Shown piece by piece: positions 192 to 33,204 of a stretch of 64,000 nt of DNA. Source of the stretch: a virus. Under the pieces are notes generated by a model, which did not search any database, was not told the DNA's origin, and saw only the letters and a program-made list of their open reading frames with translations. Every line of letters begins with the position of its first letter. The stretch's first letter is position 1. Both the position numbers and the translations under genes were made by a program. The stretch covers positions 71,939-135,938 of IMG/VR virus record IMGVR_UViG_3300040801_003693, one strand, 5' to 3'.

Positions 192-647
192 TTAATCTAG
201 TAAAGCGTCTATGTCTAACTCTTGAGAAACATCAATGAAATCACATTGATATTTTCCTTTTCTTATTTTTGTAACTTGTACTATTGTTCCGGGTGGTTTT
301 ATTTTATCGCATTCTCTTTTCGCTTTTATTGCGCTAGACGCATTAACTATTTTATAGTTATGTCCTCCGCTCCCACTTTTAATTATTCTATTTAAGCTTG
401 TGACTTTCTTACCGTTTATGCGTAACAAATAGTTAACCTGATTTTCCTTGTTATAAGTTTGATAGTATTTTATCCCTCCTATCATTACTATTCCTAATAC
501 TACACAAGCAGGTAATTGAGGACCACTACAAAAAGGAGCAAAAGGAGCTAGAGCAGCTCCCCCTTTTGCTGTCGGCGTGTTGATGGTTAATGTGATACCT
601 GTACTGAGAATAGCGATCGCACGGGTACAGATGAGAGAAAGCTTCAC
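192..647 (-). CDS. Secreted/membrane small Cys-containing protein, paralog 1 of a four-member family
   Basis: Signal-like N-terminus, hydrophobic Cys-containing segment (FCSGPQLPACVVLGIVMIGG), C-terminal A-x-x-x-C...G-x-Y-x-C domain shared with 873..1343, 21380..21772 and 32833..33204. Confidence 0.7.
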   Translation of the reverse strand: MKLSLICTRAIAILSTGITLTINTPTAKGGAALAPFAPFCSGPQLPACVVLGIVMIGGIKYYQTYNKENQVNYLLRINGKKVTSLNRIIKSGSGGHNYKIVNASSAIKAKRECDKIKPPGTIVQVTKIRKGKYQCDFIDVSQELDIDALLD

Positions 648-20331: not shown

Positions 20332-20811
20332 TTAAGTATTAATTAATTCTAAATTAAATATTTCAGCACAAATATTACCAAGATATACTGGAGCATTTGG
20401 AGCTAATTCATATCTAAAGTATTTAGGATTAGTCTCAATCTTTCCATTCTTATTAAAGATTAAAGGCTTCCATACCACTTGATTTAATTGTGGTTGTTTA
20501 TTCTTGATTGTAATCTTGTCGTATTCAATAATATCAAATGAATGTGGATAGTCCCTTTCTCCTGGGAGATAAGGATAGTGATGAATCCATTTAGTATTAA
20601 GTGGATTTAGATTAAAATCATGAATAATTAAAGGTGTAATAAATTCTACTGAATTAGTAATGCTAGTTCCAGTATTTGAATCTGTCATAATAACAATTGT
20701 TTCAGATTCAAATTCTACTAGTTTTAATTGACAATAAGAATCCCAATTACCAAATCCATTTCCAAATCCTTTCCAATTATATTTTGTATTAACTAAAATG
20801 TTATATTCCAT
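20332..20811 (-). CDS. Hypothetical protein immediately downstream of the solitary CRISPR repeat
   Basis: 159-aa ORF with GTSITNSVE motif; ATG 38 nt after the repeat. Confidence 0.65.
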   Translation of the reverse strand: MEYNILVNTKYNWKGFGNGFGNWDSYCQLKLVEFESETIVIMTDSNTGTSITNSVEFITPLIIHDFNLNPLNTKWIHHYPYLPGERDYPHSFDIIEYDKITIKNKQPQLNQVVWKPLIFNKNGKIETNPKYFRYELAPNAPVYLGNICAEIFNLELINT

Positions 20812-20849
20812 TGCGGTTTTATCCTACTTGAAAATTTAATTAAATAGCA

Positions 20850-20886
20850 GTTTCAATCCCTGATAGGGATTAGAATTAATTTCCAC
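20850..20886 (-). CRISPR. Solitary 37-nt cyanobacterial-type CRISPR repeat (no array)
   Basis: GTGGAAATTAATTCTAATCCCTATCAGGGATTGAAAC: AATCCCT/AGGGATT stem and ATTGAAAC 3' end; no second copy seen in the window. Confidence 0.8.
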
Positions 20887-20945
20887 GGGTAGTACTCGAT
20901 ATGAGAACATTGACCGAGCTTTGAAGCCGTGCGCCCCACGGACTT
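20887..20945 (-). promoter_or_regulatory. Putative repeat-proximal CRISPR leader
   Basis: On the leader side of the repeat; AGCTTTGAAG and CCACGGA at about 30 and 50 nt recall motifs of cyanobacterial leaders (from memory, not aligned). Confidence 0.35.
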
Positions 20946-21003
20946 TTTATCAAATTGTTTTTTGAAGTTGCAGGCTGCATTTCTGCATTTAATTGGATTA
21001 CAT

Positions 21004-21068
21004 TTCATCTCACACTTTTCATTTCGGGTAGGGTGTGAGACTTCCCGCCGAGAAAGTTAAAGTTTCAT
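21004..21068 (+). repeat. 65-nt hairpin repeat, copy 1 (IS200/IS605-family 3' end-like)
   Basis: TTCATCTCACAC...GTGTGAGACTTC...GAAAGTTAAAGTTTCAT; about 75% identical to 21897..21961. Confidence 0.7.
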
Positions 21069-21383
21069 CATTTTTTCAAAGTACCTCATCTTATAAATCA
21101 ACATAACCAAAGATGGAAGTTCTGGATTTATTGGTTTATAAATCTCAAAGTCCTGGTAATCCCATATATGATTAGGATTACCTTGACAGCCTACAGTGTA
21201 AGCGTGCAAAAACTTATAGCCTTTAATTTTCTTTTGACTACTTAGGTATTTTTTGACTGCTTCTTCCGGACTTATTTCGCAGCACAAACGTGGTGTTGTA
21301 GGAAGACTAAAGTATGAATTAGTTTCAGGACAGGCGGTTAGCATAAAAATAGTTTTTACGCCTTCTAAAATTTCTGATTTCAT
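21057..21383 (-). CDS. Partner (candidate immunity) protein type C
   Basis: ATGA overlap with paralog 3; stop codon lies inside hairpin repeat copy 1. Confidence 0.65.
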   Translation of the reverse strand: MKSEILEGVKTIFMLTACPETNSYFSLPTTPRLCCEISPEEAVKKYLSSQKKIKGYKFLHAYTVGCQGNPNHIWDYQDFEIYKPINPELPSLVMLIYKMRYFEKMMKL

Positions 21384-21772
21384 TTAGCAATACATCTCCA
21401 ACTTCCATTTGATTTTTGTTCAACACGGACAAATTCTAATCCATGCATATCACTTTCTCTTTGACATCTTTCTTCTGCTTGTTCTTGGGTTAATTCTTTC
21501 CCATATATATTGATAACCTGCTCTTCCTCAAAAGCGTCTGGTTCATCAATCATCTTGCGTACATTACCTTTCTCGTCTGCAAAGTATTTCTTCTTTGCAG
21601 TGCGGTTATGCCAAACATAAGAAGTCACTCCACCAATAATAGTAGTGCCCAACAAAACACAAACCTTCGCGCAAACCAAAGGCGCAATAACTATCGGCAC
21701 TGCCTCAACTTTACGAGGCATATTTAAACTAACTGCTAATCCAACAGCCAGCATTTCTGATAAAATCTTCAT
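21380..21772 (-). CDS. Secreted/membrane small Cys-containing protein, paralog 3
   Basis: Likely start MKILSEM at 21772; VEAVPIVIAPLVCAKVCVLLGTTIIGG...YVWHN closely matches 32833..33204. Confidence 0.75.
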   Translation of the reverse strand: MKILSEMLAVGLAVSLNMPRKVEAVPIVIAPLVCAKVCVLLGTTIIGGVTSYVWHNRTAKKKYFADEKGNVRKMIDEPDAFEEEQVINIYGKELTQEQAEERCQRESDMHGLEFVRVEQKSNGSWRCIAK

Positions 21773-21896
21773 ATTGAGTAACCCGCCTCTAACGGGTGAA
21801 AGATTGCCGCGATAATACCAACGTGTCCAGCGTTGGTTGCGGTATATTTTTTTACCATTCAAAATACTTCCACGGCAATCAATATCCGGTTCGTAA

Positions 21897-21961
21897 TTCA
21901 TCCCAACACTTCTCTTACGGGTAAGTGTGGGACTTCTTACGATTGAAAGTTAAATTTTCAT
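21897..21961 (+). repeat. 65-nt hairpin repeat, copy 2 (IS200/IS605-family 3' end-like)
   Basis: TTCATCCCAACAC...GTGTGGGACTTC...GAAAGTTAAATTTTCAT; compensatory stem change relative to copy 1. Confidence 0.7.
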
Positions 21962-22029
21962 GGTGCTTTTCAATATTATATAGGTATAAAAAATAATAAT
22001 CAGAAAAAGATACAAAATGTAATATTTAA

Positions 22030-22190
22030 TCAGCCCCTAAGTATTTTTATTCCACTATCAAGTATAAAAATTCAGCATAAAATTCGCGGAGGGTTTTTAT
22101 TGCTTGATAGCTTAAATCCTTTCTCTATATACATTTGAGCCTCAACTCATAACAACTACGACTTAATACTTGCTCTTCCGCGAATTTGTT
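22030..22190 (-). promoter_or_regulatory. CRISPR leader-like region with 11-bp inverted repeat
   Basis: AAATTCGCGGA (22080..22090) and TCCGCGAATTT (22177..22187) directly downstream of the cas1-like gene. Confidence 0.45.
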
Positions 22191-22191
22191 T

Positions 22192-23163
22192 TTATCTTAA
22201 ATAAAAAGGATTGTACATTTGAGAGCCATCCTCACAAATATTTTTTATTTGCTGCACCCGGATAGAAATTGCATCAGAATAATTTACTTCCATCTTTGTA
22301 TTGGGATATTTAAATTTGTATTTTAATTTGTTGCTAAAAGATTGTGCTAATTTCTTTTGAATAATTTCAGGAAGTACATCCTCAGTGTATTCATTAAAAT
22401 CAGAAGCGCATATAGTTTTCAGATTGAATACTTTAATTAATATAGGATCGATTAGATAAGGCGACATTTCAAATTTAAGATCGGCAACTAATGCTCCACA
22501 TTTGTGCTTCTCACTATGCCTAAATAAGGATATTTCTTCACTGACATTATTAGCAATCAAAGTAATTCTTATTTGCTTTTCTAATAAACTTTCTAGAAAG
22601 ACAATACACATTTGTGCTATCGAATCTTTTCTCTTACCGTAATATTCGATATCATCTATAAAGAATTTTCCTAGTAAAGCATAATATTTTGCATGAATTA
22701 ATCCTAAGTACCCGTTGATTGAATCTATCCCTTTGCTTAATTGAATTTGCTGTAAACTGTAATTATAAAATATTTTAAATTGTTTTAATTCCTCTTCGCT
22801 AATAGAATTTCTATCACGATACTGTCTTCTTAAAAAGTTGTACCTTCTTTTCGTAACTAAAATTGATTGTTGCTTCACAATGTCTAATCGTAAAGCATTA
22901 TAGTTAATAGCATAACTATTAATTGCTTTTCCAAACTTATATATCCCCCCAGGAGAAGAGATAATTACAGTAATGTTCTTATCAATTAAAAGCTGTAATA
23001 CTCCAGAGCTAATACTTATATCTGAAGTATTTATACATAAGCAAACATTGTTTAAGTCTTCAATTGTTTCTAATATATATTCAGGATTAACATAGCCTGT
23101 TTCTAGTTCTGTACTGTCAAGAGATATTATTTTAGAGAATGGATAATGATTACTGCTATTCAA
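22192..23163 (-). CDS. cas1: Divergent Cas1 homologue, probably catalytically inactive
   Basis: Colinear with cyanobacterial Cas1: ISSGVLQLL, RLDIVK, SINGYLGL (EG becomes LG), FRH, ALVADLKFE, SDF, KLKYKFKYP, YSDAI, YNPFYLR. Confidence 0.75.
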   Translation of the reverse strand: MNSSNHYPFSKIISLDSTELETGYVNPEYILETIEDLNNVCLCINTSDISISSGVLQLLIDKNITVIISSPGGIYKFGKAINSYAINYNALRLDIVKQQSILVTKRRYNFLRRQYRDRNSISEEELKQFKIFYNYSLQQIQLSKGIDSINGYLGLIHAKYYALLGKFFIDDIEYYGKRKDSIAQMCIVFLESLLEKQIRITLIANNVSEEISLFRHSEKHKCGALVADLKFEMSPYLIDPILIKVFNLKTICASDFNEYTEDVLPEIIQKKLAQSFSNKLKYKFKYPNTKMEVNYSDAISIRVQQIKNICEDGSQMYNPFYLR

Positions 23164-25438: not shown

Positions 25439-26386
25439 TTATTTATATAATCCTTCCCTTGGGAGAGGATTGTACTTTAGAAGAATCTTTGCCCACTCTT
25501 TATTCAATTTAGCTCTAAGATATCTTTGAGGTCTAAGCTGAATATGCTCTTCAGAAATATAGTAGATATTAGTATAAGGTTTGAATGCCAAATCTTTAAA
25601 TTTATTATTAGTAAAGATTGGTTTACAATTTTCTCCTTCTGAATTTAGAAAACGAGTTTCATGAAATTCATTACGAACATCTTCTTTGTCTAATCGTATA
25701 CATTGCTGCTTTTTAATTACAGGTTTTAAGCCACGAGCTTTTCTGTAATTATTATCCAATCTTCTTTGAATGGTGGATGTGGAATATCCTGAATGCTTTG
25801 CAATATATTCTTGTGATGCTCCATATAGAAGGTTAGAAGAATTAACGTAAATAAATCTATCTGATAAAAAAAGTATCCGCTTGGATTTGCAGCAGAGTTT
25901 TTCAGCAGATAAAGTTTTTCGTATTAAATCTTTCTTCCCAACTGTCGCAGCATACAAACTTTTATCTTGCGCTCTAATAGCGTCAGCTTCAGTTGCTTTA
26001 AACTTTATATCTTTTAGTTCATCTACTCCTATTTCTGTTACTGCACCCAAGTTTTTAATTCCGTATCTAAGGCAGAGTTTGATTACGGAACAATAATAAA
26101 ATCTGTAATAACCTTTTCTTAACTTTATTACATTTCTAAATAGACCTAACCTTTCTGCAAATCTTATCCACCTACGAATTACCGAACACGATCTATCAAA
26201 TATTCTAGCTGCTTCATTAATCTTAATATCCGCATATCCACTTCCTGCTTCATCTAAAGCTTTCGTTAAATAGAATAGTTTAATTGCACTATGCCCTTCT
26301 AATTGGCTGTTGTAGGTGTTACAGCCAGACCATAAAGCTTGATTAACGAGAGAACTGTGGATATGTATATAAAGCAAAGCAACCAA
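25439..26386 (-). CDS. Basic protein with two HTH-like motifs (possible replication/regulatory protein)
   Basis: EAARIFDRSCSVIRRWI and QEYIAKHSGYSTSTIQRRL. Confidence 0.5.
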   Translation of the reverse strand: MVALLYIHIHSSLVNQALWSGCNTYNSQLEGHSAIKLFYLTKALDEAGSGYADIKINEAARIFDRSCSVIRRWIRFAERLGLFRNVIKLRKGYYRFYYCSVIKLCLRYGIKNLGAVTEIGVDELKDIKFKATEADAIRAQDKSLYAATVGKKDLIRKTLSAEKLCCKSKRILFLSDRFIYVNSSNLLYGASQEYIAKHSGYSTSTIQRRLDNNYRKARGLKPVIKKQQCIRLDKEDVRNEFHETRFLNSEGENCKPIFTNNKFKDLAFKPYTNIYYISEEHIQLRPQRYLRAKLNKEWAKILLKYNPLPREGLYK

Positions 26387-32832: not shown

Positions 32833-33204
32833 ATGAAATTCATTATATCCTTTTTATGTATGGCTAGTGTTACGGTTAGTCCTTTTAATTTTGTAAAGAA
32901 CAATAAAGCAATACCATTGGCGATCGCAGCACCTGTAGTTTGTGCTAAGTACTGCGTGTTAATTGGAACAGCAATTCTGGGTGGAAGCACTACTGTATAT
33001 ATATGGCATAACAAAAAGACAAACCAAAGATATATCAGTACTAATAATGGTAATATTATTGAGAGTAAAGGTGTGTATGCTAAAGATTTAGAGGAGGCTA
33101 CCAAAAGGTGCTTAAAAATAAAACCCAGAAATAAGAAATTGAAGAATGTTGTCAAAAGAAAAGATGTAAGTGGTGGATTTTACTATGAATGTGAATATAG
33201 ATAA
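32833..33204 (+). CDS. Secreted/membrane small Cys-containing protein, paralog 4
   Basis: AIPLAIAAPVVCAKYCVLIGTAILGG...YIWHN; C-terminus EATKRCLKIKP...GFYYEC. Confidence 0.75.
   Translation: MKFIISFLCMASVTVSPFNFVKNNKAIPLAIAAPVVCAKYCVLIGTAILGGSTTVYIWHNKKTNQRYISTNNGNIIESKGVYAKDLEEATKRCLKIKPRNKKLKNVVKRKDVSGGFYYECEYR

Follow-up and report, generated by a model that had tools for sequence, protein, structure and literature searches.

Organization of the locus

The analysis covered a 64,000-nucleotide stretch of viral DNA, called the window in the following, which corresponds to positions 71,939 to 135,938 of the record IMGVR_UViG_3300040801_003693; several searches were extended to the whole record of 135,938 bp, which is 78% complete. 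Within the window, two genes and their leader are bracketed by two direct repeats, rep1 and rep2, each containing a hairpin (Table 1). As the initial annotation had stated, the repeats lie 893 bp apart, measured from start to start, and enclose exactly one gene pair with its leader. The second gene was also confirmed to end, with TAA at 21059..21057, within the conserved GTTAAA.

Table 1. Features of the repeat-flanked locus and of the IscB element end used for comparison
Feature	Position	Strand	Remarks
Solitary CRISPR repeat	20850..20886	minus	Rfam CRISPR-DR5; 45.3 bits, gathering score 40
Putative PATE body, derived from tnpB 3' end/omega-RNA	20900..21002	minus	80-84% identity to host elements
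rep1, putative left end (LE) of PATE-type miniature IS605-family element	21003..21055	minus	hairpin 21008-21040; aligns with host PATEs
rep1 repeat as first described	21004-21068		GTTAAA 21056-21061 inside
Target motif TTTAAC at rep1	21056..21061	minus	contains stop codon of 108-aa gene
Cargo gene 2, partner, orphan	21057..21383	minus	108 aa; stop codon inside TTTAAC of rep1
Cargo gene 1	21380..21772	minus	130 aa; signal-peptide-like start, hydrophobic segment, variable two-cysteine C-terminal part
Structured leader of small membrane protein gene	21773..21861	minus	part of phage gene module, not of transposon
tnpA (Y1 transposase) remnant	21862..21896	plus	last ~12 codons; TAA stop 21894-21896
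rep2, putative LE of IS605-group element	21897..21948	minus	hairpin 21901-21932; 16-nt linker to boundary
rep2 repeat as first described	21897-21961
Target motif (TAM) TTTAAC at rep2	21949..21954	minus (top strand)	GTTAAA on plus strand; host matches all stop at 21954
IscB element, TAM-proximal end	63942..64000	minus	boundary 63995|63996; ATGAA is the reverse complement of TTCAT

Eleven relatives of cargo gene 1 were detected, of which a single 59.7-kb contig carries six, and four paralogues are present in the phage record. The homologues are about 130 aa long and start at the MKI... methionine; for two paralogues on another contig, the called ORFs extend through a similar leader. Sequences from other runs match the leader from 21792 to 21853 and then diverge, and no match to it was found in four host genomes. 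Its fold is of moderate stability (z -1.9). Protein searches with the 108-aa partner returned just the protein itself, and neither cargo protein could be assigned to a family in Pfam, NCBIfam or PHROG. With an alignment of the cargo protein family, nothing was obtained from viral_contigs, metagenome_contigs, the four host genomes (0/4) or 'phages' (tblastn), and a search for exact matches to 25 nt of the 108-aa gene was negative in metagenome_contigs and viral_contigs. Close relatives of the locus were found neither by blastn against 'phages' nor in viral_contigs with the Cas1-like, 173-aa and 108-aa proteins. Searches of the ESM Atlas with both cargo proteins gave scores of at most 0.78 and a low-confidence model, and provided no lead.

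Contigs of the metagenome runs X3 and X5 are 97-99% identical to the 108-aa gene, with the similarity ending at 21059. These runs match 20900-21955, but not the flanking phage genes; stretches without read cover were not counted as absence. Cargo similarity that stops at the end of the gene fits a mobile module as well as phage mosaicism.

The two hairpin repeats

Alignment of rep1 and rep2 yielded 46 identical positions in 66 columns (70%) and 47 in the 61-column core (77%); the identity given before was about 75%. An nhmmer search of the complete record detected two repeat matches at E<=1e-15, the next one having an E of 4, and a covariance model did not reveal a third copy at E<0.05. The covariance-model search for repeat arrays, which had been suggested as a check, thus yielded just rep1 and rep2 in this record. 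With the hairpin core as part of the pattern, no match was obtained in viral_contigs. A looser pattern picked up at least 108 stretches from viral_contigs; in a profile check, these resembled solely the pattern itself and were therefore regarded as chance matches.

Each repeat can form a hairpin of 12-13 bp. Compared with shuffled sequences, the fold of rep2 is clearly more stable (z -3.26, none of 200 shuffles as good), but that of rep1 is not exceptional by energy alone (z -1.04, 32 of 200 shuffles as good). The compensatory change noticed initially, TCTCA/TGAGA in one copy and TCCCA/TGGGA in the other, is a true one and corresponds to alignment columns 11/42. In an alignment of 24 copies, which was fitted to the covariance model, both sides are changed in nine of the 13 base pairs, and 91.7% of the cells are paired. 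The covariation score of 0.428 was not reached by any of 500 shuffles (0.241 +/- 0.017), and slid controls attained 0.113 at most. In a plain MAFFT alignment of 10 sequences, five of the 13 pairs covary.

Irrespective of their origin, the position of the hairpins could suggest a present role for the phage at the RNA level, with rep2 acting in the operon's 5' leader and rep1 stabilising the transcript at its 3' side or marking a processing site. rep2 is indeed located between a promoter-like TATAAT region, recognised by eye, and the operon, and rep1 lies directly 3' of the last stop codon. However, the TATAAT site is not listed by the promoter scan, and both repeats fold better on the plus strand, antisense to the cargo genes (-14.6 and -17.6 kcal/mol versus -13.3 and -14.3 kcal/mol on the minus strand). 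In addition, three paralogous operons do without such hairpins. The terminator scan lists neither repeat and no T-run follows on either strand, so that intrinsic terminators are not indicated and the hairpins also lack a U-tract at their 3' side. Taken together, we regard a function as RNA elements as unlikely.

Homologues of the repeats in cyanobacterial genomes

Matches to this region were detected in all four Calothrix/Rivularia/Plectonema genomes (4/4), and the homology to the phage repeats held when full host elements were aligned. A covariance model built from 21 host copies alone, without the phage copies (R3), recovered rep2 with 71.1 bits (E 1.7e-14) and rep1 with 36.3 bits (E 5.4e-6) from the 64-kb window, with the next-best match at an E of 0.9. 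Twenty-three of 24 aligned copies terminate in G(T/C)TAAA, and the flanks past this boundary differ. The properties of an IS200/IS605 left end were thus found: homologues linked to Y1 TnpA, a conserved hairpin, a sharp boundary with a TAM, and asymmetric linkers. Judged from sequence, rep1 and rep2 are probably left ends that stem from IS200/IS605-family elements of cyanobacteria of the Calothrix/Rivularia type. TTTAAC precedes both of them, and cleavage by TnpA is predicted at TTTAAC|LE on the top strand.

Many of the host elements are palindrome-associated transposable elements (PATEs), gene-less miniatures of IS200/IS605 elements, whose name and concept are adopted from what Meers et al. 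say of them. Among 22 host LE copies, one is associated with tnpA and tnpB, three with tnpB, 15 are PATE-like and three are neither, in a sample biased by the fact that about 14 of the 22 loci were retrieved with a PATE-body query. As their ends, ordinary IS or PATE elements hence account for 19 of the 22 copies; the remaining three have no recognisable partner within 1.6 kb. rep1 and rep2 are probably the left ends of tnpA/tnpB elements of the IS605 group and of their PATE-type miniatures. The host PATEs are about 270 nt long and consist of the LE, a short spacer, a part derived from the tnpB 3' end/omega-RNA and the right-end (RE) hairpin, with no ORF. Their LE and RE hairpins are near-identical and located on the same strand.

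Several characters are shared with the IS605 group, for which IS608 and ISDra2 serve as models. Shared are an imperfect hairpin in subterminal position, recognised on a single strand, a conserved target motif that immediately precedes the LE on its 5' side, a linker that is long at the LE and short at the RE, similar LE and RE hairpins, and Y1_Tnp and OrfB_IS605 genes in host copies. Differences are found in the target motif, which is TTTA(A/G)C here rather than TTAC, the motif of IS608, and in the state of the phage copies, which are remnants without right end, transposase or tnpB gene. In host PATEs, the LE has a linker of 15-16 nt, while that of the RE, where the hairpin is followed by TACGTCAC, measures 8 nt; IS608 shows the same asymmetry, with 19 nt and 10 nt, respectively (PMC3597680).

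In the phage record, as far as it is complete (78%), no match to Y1_Tnp was obtained at E<=1, the Calothrix TnpA as a tblastn query yielded no match with an E below 1.5, and the TNB domain of TnpB was not found. An autonomous element with tnpA in cis was therefore not detected, and any activity of the ends would need TnpA in trans. On both points, an origin from transposons of the HUH/Y1 TnpA type and a transposase supplied in trans, the first reading of the sequence is supported, the former by the host tnpA/tnpB elements and PATEs. At both copies, an LE is present and an RE is absent, so that neither represents a complete, mobilisable IS200/IS605 element or PATE or could be excised by the normal reaction between LE and RE. 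Both pieces are probably inactive at present.

Two truncated elements from different sub-lineages

The identity between rep2 and a Calothrix copy amounts to 91-93%, with 93% over 69 nt for G002:C16 (Calothrix sp. CCY 0018). Homology of rep2 to host copies spans ~21862 to 21954, which means that the repeat extends further on one side than described originally. The Calothrix copy (locus L131) begins 2 nt past the stop codon of a 137-aa Y1_Tnp ORF (Pfam 1e-44, 152 bits), which is accompanied by a divergent TnpB (OrfB_IS605 8e-22). Next to rep2, the window sequence can be aligned both to the 3' end of tnpA in L131 and to the equivalent remnant in L135, a tnpB-only derivative with the same end as L131. 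Translated on the plus strand, the remnant ends in ...KILPRQSISGS before the stop codon, its host counterpart in ...KYIEGQSKPGS. Past rep2, the homology ceases near 21862, and neither an RE hairpin nor a TACGTCAC end is present there.

rep1 aligns with the LE of the host PATEs L178, L191, L179 and L133, and together with 20900-21002 it is colinear with host PATEs. The 80-84% identity of the body to host elements extends over about 100 nt, and such elements occurred in 14 of the 401 genomes sampled. The body is also colinear with the 3' end of tnpB in L135, and run X3 contains an 82-nt contig identical to it. Relative to L133 and X3, the window copy is short by 37-41 nt at 21002|21003. A 51-aa ORF (20853-21008) overlaps the body, and two terminator-like plus-strand hairpins (20927-20941 and 20969-20987) are situated inside it. 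In BLASTP, this ORF aligned with TnpB at the right place (residues 361-376), but the E value of 0.39 is not significant, and the assignment of the region to tnpB is therefore based on DNA homology. Similarity to PATEs stops near 20900, just short of a CRISPR repeat which occupies the place of the missing right-end hairpin and TACGTCAC end. Thus, the window copy resembles the ~270-nt host PATEs but differs from them by the internal deletion and by carrying a CRISPR repeat instead of the RE.

The CRISPR repeat is present in a single copy in the record and is 86-92% identical to array repeats in the host genomes G002, G003 and G004; contigs with repeat-spacer-repeat units occur in runs X1, X2 and X5. 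With permissive thresholds, Rfam searches of 20700-22300 identified this repeat alone, all other matches having E values of 0.95 or higher. A degenerate second CRISPR repeat past rep2 was considered and dismissed, as only about 13 of 37 positions matched by eye and no further copy was found in the record within 10 mismatches.

The two repeats come from different sub-lineages, as their identities show (see below), and they are attached to different transposon remnants, a tnpA 3' end in the case of rep2 and a part of the tnpB 3' end/omega-RNA in that of rep1. A local duplication within the phage could also have produced direct repeats, and ATGAAAnTTTAAC is found on the outer side of both. Yet rep2 shares far more with the Calothrix copy (53 of 58 positions) than with rep1 (47 of 61), and the inner neighbours, tnpA remnant and PATE body, are not the same. 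We consider such a duplication extremely improbable.

The pair could alternatively be a passenger of one composite IS605-type transposon, reaching from the LE of rep2 to a right end beyond 20900 that has since been lost. LE, tnpA 3' remnant, cargo and tnpB 3'/omega-RNA part are colinear with a full element, and the restriction of the X3 and X5 matches to 20900-21955 would be in agreement. However, rep1 and the tnpB 3' part reproduce the layout of stand-alone host PATEs and hence point to a separate element. Where X3 and X5 match the repeats and 20900-21002, the sequences resemble IS or PATE copies of the host with many different flanks. In addition, the cargo protein family was found in none of the four host genomes, the leader and gene family recur in other paralogues which diverge from the window before the LE is reached, and a right end is absent. 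One composite element is thus distinctly unlikely.

Comparison with the end of the IscB element

The repeats had initially been compared to the 3' end of an IscB element located at the far end of the window. In architecture, this likeness is real: hairpin, linker of ~16-20 nt, sharp boundary and target motif follow each other in the same layout and orientation, the top strand being the window minus strand for all three pieces, and the elements belong to the same transposon superfamily. Homology was not detected. IscB loci are conserved up to ...TAGATGA(A) and divergent past that, and a covariance model from 10 of these loci (R1) scored the window IscB end at 66.1 bits. The same model gave no match to rep1 or rep2 at E<=10 with filters off. 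In the opposite direction, the repeat model did not match the window IscB end at E<=5, nor did the repeat model R2 match nine IscB loci at E<=0.01. Since neither model finds the other element, the repeats and the IscB end are not demonstrably homologous, and rep1 and rep2 do not qualify as ends of an IscB/IsrB (HEARO) element. The target motifs also differ, TTCAT for the IscB end versus TTTAAC for the repeats. In the passages of Meers et al. dealing with IscB, the omega-RNA side is designated RE and TTCAT is the TAM of a Geobacillus IscB. By that convention, the iscB 3' end in the window is an LE, not a 3' or right end.

Do the repeats delimit a mobile cassette?

The initial annotation had proposed integron-like cassette arrays built by single-ended mobilisation. 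In such a model, a host TnpA would cut at both TTTAAC|LE junctions and rejoin LE to LE. The excised circle would be made up of the gene pair with its leader, the LE of rep2 and TTTAAC, and could re-enter at any resident LE, giving rise to integron-like arrays. Some features of the locus are compatible with it. Two LEs in the same orientation, with intact hairpins, linkers and target motifs, are placed exactly at the borders of one pair; the pair is a member of a family that is polymorphic and present in several copies, with four pairs in the record and the six paralogues on another contig; and the nearly identical cargo of other runs is similar just up to the gene end. The chemistry is conceivable by inference, because both cleavages would leave a 3'-OH on the motif side.

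Nevertheless, other observations speak against this model. No array was found, neither in the phage record, where the two repeats are the only copies and the three other paralogous gene pairs have no such repeat, nor in host genomes. Scoring 150 candidates per genome in five host genomes resulted in 46 matches, among which there were no tandem copies; the nearest copies in the same orientation are 18.7 kb apart. Tandem units with different cargo at the same site, as in integrons, are therefore missing from the record and from these five genomes. Most host copies form the termini of ordinary IS or PATE elements, the two LEs belong to different sub-lineages, each with its own transposon remnant, and a single-repeat joint in run X5 (21002 to 21918) represents the normal PATE structure, as in L178. 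As an outcome at odds with its proposal, the annotation had named a repeat confined to ends of ordinary IscB/IsrB elements, and essentially this was observed, with tnpA/tnpB elements and PATEs in their stead. The evidence supports an HUH origin and a requirement for TnpA in trans but not integron-like mobilisation, and we judge rejoining of LE to LE to be very improbable.

The resemblance to integron cassettes with attC sites is superficial. It consists of a folded single-strand site which ends in GTTAAA and borders a promoterless-looking gene unit; the consensus of the integron core site is GTTRRRY. A paired RYYYAAC core was not recognised by eye, and arrays were not found. That IS605 ends could serve phages as attC-like sites for shuffling a polymorphic module of membrane protein and partner is accordingly very doubtful. 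PeSL-type mobile regulatory cassettes of T4-like phages also have hairpins at the joints of accessory phage genes, but the repeats described here differ from them by their host IS homologues, and in sequence from the gene joints at 42-52 kb of the contig.

Origin of the repeats

The repeats are quite probably debris of host IS200/IS605 elements whose insertion sites flank a phage gene pair. The elements would be 'peel-and-paste' single-strand insertion sequences of Calothrix/Rivularia-type cyanobacteria, and phage DNA, single-stranded while it was being replicated, would have been the substrate of a host Y1 TnpA acting in trans. Two different family members would have inserted 3' of two TTTAAC motifs. 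On the top strand, the order in each copy is TTTAAC, predicted cleavage point, 15-16-nt linker and imperfect hairpin. One insertion would have occurred upstream of the gene-pair leader, and of this element just the LE and some 12 codons from the 3' end of tnpA would be left (rep2). In another, presumably independent event, a PATE-type miniature would have entered at the TTTAAC holding the stop codon of the second gene, leaving rep1 and 20900-21002; its right-end hairpin would later have been lost and replaced by a CRISPR repeat of the host type. That the gene pair is bracketed would then be incidental, two elements having landed in a stretch that tolerates insertions. Tolerance of this accessory stretch to insertions and an orientation bias of the family are assumptions.

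Some observations should be mentioned as counter-points. The sole two copies in 136 kb are 893 bp apart in the same orientation around exactly one pair, and under a uniform random model the chance of such a placement is about 1% (estimated as 2 x 1 kb/136 kb, halved for orientation). Moreover, the outer flanks of rep1 and rep2 have ATGAAA in common, one base past TTTAAC, and this sequence is absent from the host flanks.

Implications

The main value of the analysis is a clean negative: what looked like a cassette bracketed by covarying hairpins resolves to debris of ordinary IS605-family elements. Rejoining of LE to LE, improbable as it is, would give HUH transposases a novel route to the construction of gene cassettes. 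For this IS lineage, TTTA(A/G)C was defined as the target motif, and it should also be the TAM of the TnpB nucleases of the lineage. Finally, the locus documents traffic of IS605, PATE and IscB elements from host to phage in an Ma-LMM01-like phage. The identities, 91-93% to a Calothrix copy for the IS end, 86-87% for the IscB protein and 92% for the CRISPR repeat, point to a host of the Calothrix/Rivularia type, and such cyanobacteria are likely to be the hosts of this Ma-LMM01-like myophage.

Two hairpin repeats and the genes around them

The window forms the final 64 kb of a virus record of 135,938 bp. The virus record encodes a major capsid protein, a tail sheath, baseplate J, tail-fibre proteins and lysis enzymes, and its tail sheath is 40-43% identical to the sheaths of Microcystis phage Ma-LMM01 and Microcoleus phage My-WqHQDG. 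The minus strand carries every gene around the two repeats, which were found where the initial annotation had placed them, 893 bp apart, and are the only copies in the full record. They are identical in 46 of 66 aligned columns (47/61 in the core), and a hairpin of 12-13 bp is predicted in both; by folding energy alone, rep2 stands out (z -3.26), whereas rep1 does not (z -1.04). The exchange of TCTCA/TGAGA for TCCCA/TGGGA is a genuine compensatory pair, and GTTAAA does contain the stop codon of the 108-aa gene, both as previously described. An ORF starting within rep2 would yield 173 aa, which is too long, since relatives begin at the internal MKI... methionine and are only about 130 aa long. 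Therefore, the stretch 21773-21896 is non-coding, as had been assumed. In an alignment of 24 copies fitted to the model, 9 of 13 hairpin pairs were changed on both sides; none of 500 shuffles attained the covariation score, and slid controls were far lower; a plain alignment of 10 copies still gave covariation in five of 13 pairs. The hairpin is under structural selection.

Features around the repeats, in transcription order, followed by paralogous pairs and the IscB element (window coordinates unless marked contig)
Feature	Position	Strand	Remarks
Divergent Cas1-like gene	23163..22192	-	Pfam Cas_Cas1 2e-11, TIGR00287 1.8e-14
rep2	21897-21961		
Structured leader			
130-aa membrane-type protein	21772..21380	-	
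108-aa partner	21383..21057	-	
rep1	21004-21068		followed by 117 nt non-coding
Single CRISPR-DR5 repeat	20886..20850	-	Rfam, 45.3 bits
159-aa gene			
Paralogous pair	contig 68020-68418	-	with next ORF
Paralogous pair	192-647	-	with next ORF
Paralogous pair	21380-21772	-	with next ORF
Paralogous pair	32833-33204	+	with next ORF
IscB element	62406-64000		protein 82-87% identical to Calothrix/Rivularia copies
HEARO/omega-RNA	62406-62621		
iscB	62638-63915		

The Cas1-like gene, 230 nt upstream of rep2, is very divergent: among 1.84 billion representatives, only 59 proteins were at E<=1e-3, and one relative is 39% identical. Aligned weakly (E 0.0015) with Cas1 chain 7cr6_A, it seems to keep the His and Asp positions, but has Leu opposite the first catalytic Glu. 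No cas2 gene was recognised beside it. In the source-sample runs X1 and X2, one contig each (depth 15-17) runs directly from 25897 to 26269 and so omits 371 nt within a 315-aa HTH-containing ORF (25439-26386, minus strand); they may represent a deletion variant or a relative.

The repeats as left ends of IS200/IS605 elements

Relatives of the window IscB protein occur in Calothrix, Rivularia and Plectonema genomes (82-87% identity), and four of these genomes were searched for the repeat region, which was matched in all four. The top match to rep2, 93% identical over 69 nt, is in Calothrix sp. CCY 0018 and starts 2 nt past the stop codon of a 137-aa ORF specifying a Y1 transposase (Pfam Y1_Tnp, 1e-44), which is adjoined by a divergently transcribed TnpB gene (OrfB_IS605, 8e-22). 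A second host copy terminates a tnpB-only derivative retaining just the final tnpA codons, and the same tnpA remnant is present in the window at 21862-21896 on the plus strand (...SISGS-stop versus ...SKPGS-stop in the host). In all copies, similarity ends at one common point, after GTTAAA or GCTAAA in 23 of 24. On the top (tnpB-sense) strand, TTTA(A/G)C is followed by the predicted cleavage point, a linker of 15-16 nt and the hairpin; left ends in the IS200/IS605 family have this geometry relative to their target motif. The IS608 linkers mentioned in PMC3597680 are 19 nt at the left and 10 nt at the right end. The corresponding right end is seen in host miniature elements, where the same strand carries a near-identical hairpin and then 8 nt (TACGTCAC). 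For a model from 21 host copies alone, the best match in the window was rep2 (E 1.7e-14) and the second best rep1 (E 5.4e-6), the next having E 0.9. The proposed IS200/IS605 (HUH) nature of the repeats is upheld. Neither Y1 TnpA nor TnpB was found in the virus record, so that the transposase would indeed be required in trans.

rep1 belongs to a gene-less miniature element

The 3' region of tnpB yields omega-RNA in the IS605-type family. For the 103 nt to the left of rep1 (20900-21002, plus strand), similar sequences (80-84% identity) occur in 14 of 401 sampled same-order genomes. There they form gene-less elements of about 270 nt, in which TTTAAC and the left end are followed by about 40 nt of spacer, by sequence colinear with the tnpB 3' end, and by the right-end hairpin and end. 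These elements resemble the PATEs, gene-less IS200/IS605 miniatures, as mentioned by Meers et al. Compared with a host PATE locus and a contig of metagenome run X3, 37-41 nt are missing from the window copy at 21002/21003; more importantly, the right-end hairpin and end are also missing, and a solitary CRISPR repeat occupies their place. A 51-aa 'Cys' ORF (20853-21008) overlaps the tnpB-derived DNA; its similarity to TnpB protein is at the right position and not significant (E 0.39).

Inside the PATE body, the plus strand has two terminator-like hairpins with T-runs (20927-20941 and 20969-20987), probably structural components of omega-RNA-derived sequence viewed from the opposite strand. An identical 82-nt contig across 20916-20997 was present in X3. 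The CRISPR repeat, the sole copy in the record, is fused to the truncated PATE, with the 159-aa gene 38 nt downstream. It is 86-92% identical to repeats in the arrays of three candidate host genomes, and X1, X2 and another run, X5, also contain it in repeat-spacer-repeat contigs. Solitary repeats on phages have been proposed as RNA anti-CRISPRs.

Comparison with the IscB element

Meers et al. state that the right end of IscB elements is the omega-RNA side and that the TAM of Geobacillus IscB is TTCAT. The sequence past iscB is therefore also a left end, in bottom-strand reading. The window IscB end reads ...TTTTAG, then ATGAA (= TTCAT), and related loci diverge directly beyond. The layout of the repeats resembles this end because both are the same kind of object in the same orientation. 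Homology was not found: a model of the IscB end (10 loci) matched neither repeat at E<=10, and the repeat model matched neither the window IscB end at E<=5 nor nine IscB loci at E<=0.01. The resemblance originally noted thus holds in layout, but the repeats and the IscB end are not detectably homologous.

The top strand of the IscB element, rep1 and rep2 is the window minus strand in all three cases. That the record stops 5 nt beyond the IscB element boundary suggests that assembly broke off at a multi-copy repeat. The left-end model also gave a marginal match (E 0.052, 17.9 bits; 61639-61697, minus strand) some 700 nt to the left of the element: a hairpin with ...TTTAGATGTAAA after it, which could be a further decayed transposon end or chance. 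Outside the window, downstream of paralogue pair A (contig 67.8-67.9 kb), lies a hairpin (CCCCGGTCTAAAGACACGGGG) resembling in loop and stem the element-end hairpin of two IscB loci, L007 and L008; the left-end model had no match on it.

The enclosed gene pair

In the 130-aa protein, the N-terminal two-thirds are conserved, with a signal-peptide-like start, a hydrophobic segment and a basic stretch; the C-terminal part of about 50 aa is variable, with two conserved cysteines. Partners vary from one pair to the next; C and D have mutually related partners. Pfam, NCBIfam, PHROG and the ESM Atlas gave no family, structure or atlas lead for either gene, and the pair reads like a polymorphic two-gene module. 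Six further paralogues of the 130-aa protein are located on one 59.7-kb contig elsewhere.

X3 and X5 match 20900-21955 only. Where they match the repeats or 20900-21002, the flanks are of many kinds, among them a tnpA 3' end similar to the one in the Calothrix tnpA-tnpB locus, and these matches appear to be host IS and PATE copies. At 21910/21924, T-A is replaced by C-G in the X5 copies, as in Calothrix copies; an apparent joint from 21002 to 21918 in X5 was ordinary PATE structure. The 108-aa gene is found at 97-99% identity in X3 and X5, with similarity ending where the gene ends, which shows the module in another context in these runs.

Origin of the bracketing repeats

For the cassette arrays initially suggested, nothing was found in support in the record, in five host genomes or among the host copies. 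Repeats accompany only one of the four paralogous pairs in the record, that at 21057-21772. In the five host genomes (150 candidates scored in each), 46 matches were obtained; the closest neighbours, at distances of 5.2 and 6.3 kb, are oppositely oriented, and no two in the same orientation are closer than 18.7 kb. In a sample of 22 host copies, biased to PATEs by the mode of locus fetching, one was beside tnpA and tnpB, three beside tnpB, 15 were PATE-like, and three had no recognisable partner.

Duplication of one site as the source of both copies is contradicted: rep2 is closer to the Calothrix copy (53/58) than to rep1 (47/61), and the inner sides of the repeats bear different transposon remnants, therefore indicating two acquisitions. 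In the favoured reading, an IS605-group element and a PATE from the host inserted at TTTAAC motifs, and both, now without right ends, are remnants. Against such an origin speak the closeness of the two copies, which neatly bracket one pair, the ATGAAA common to both one base past the target motif, and the searches of viral and metagenome contigs and phages, which recovered no other context of the gene pair. A TnpA-mediated exchange between two left ends is chemically conceivable and is kept as a possible, though very improbable, case. The explanation of the bracketing repeats is an ordinary one, remnants of a host IS605-group element and a PATE.
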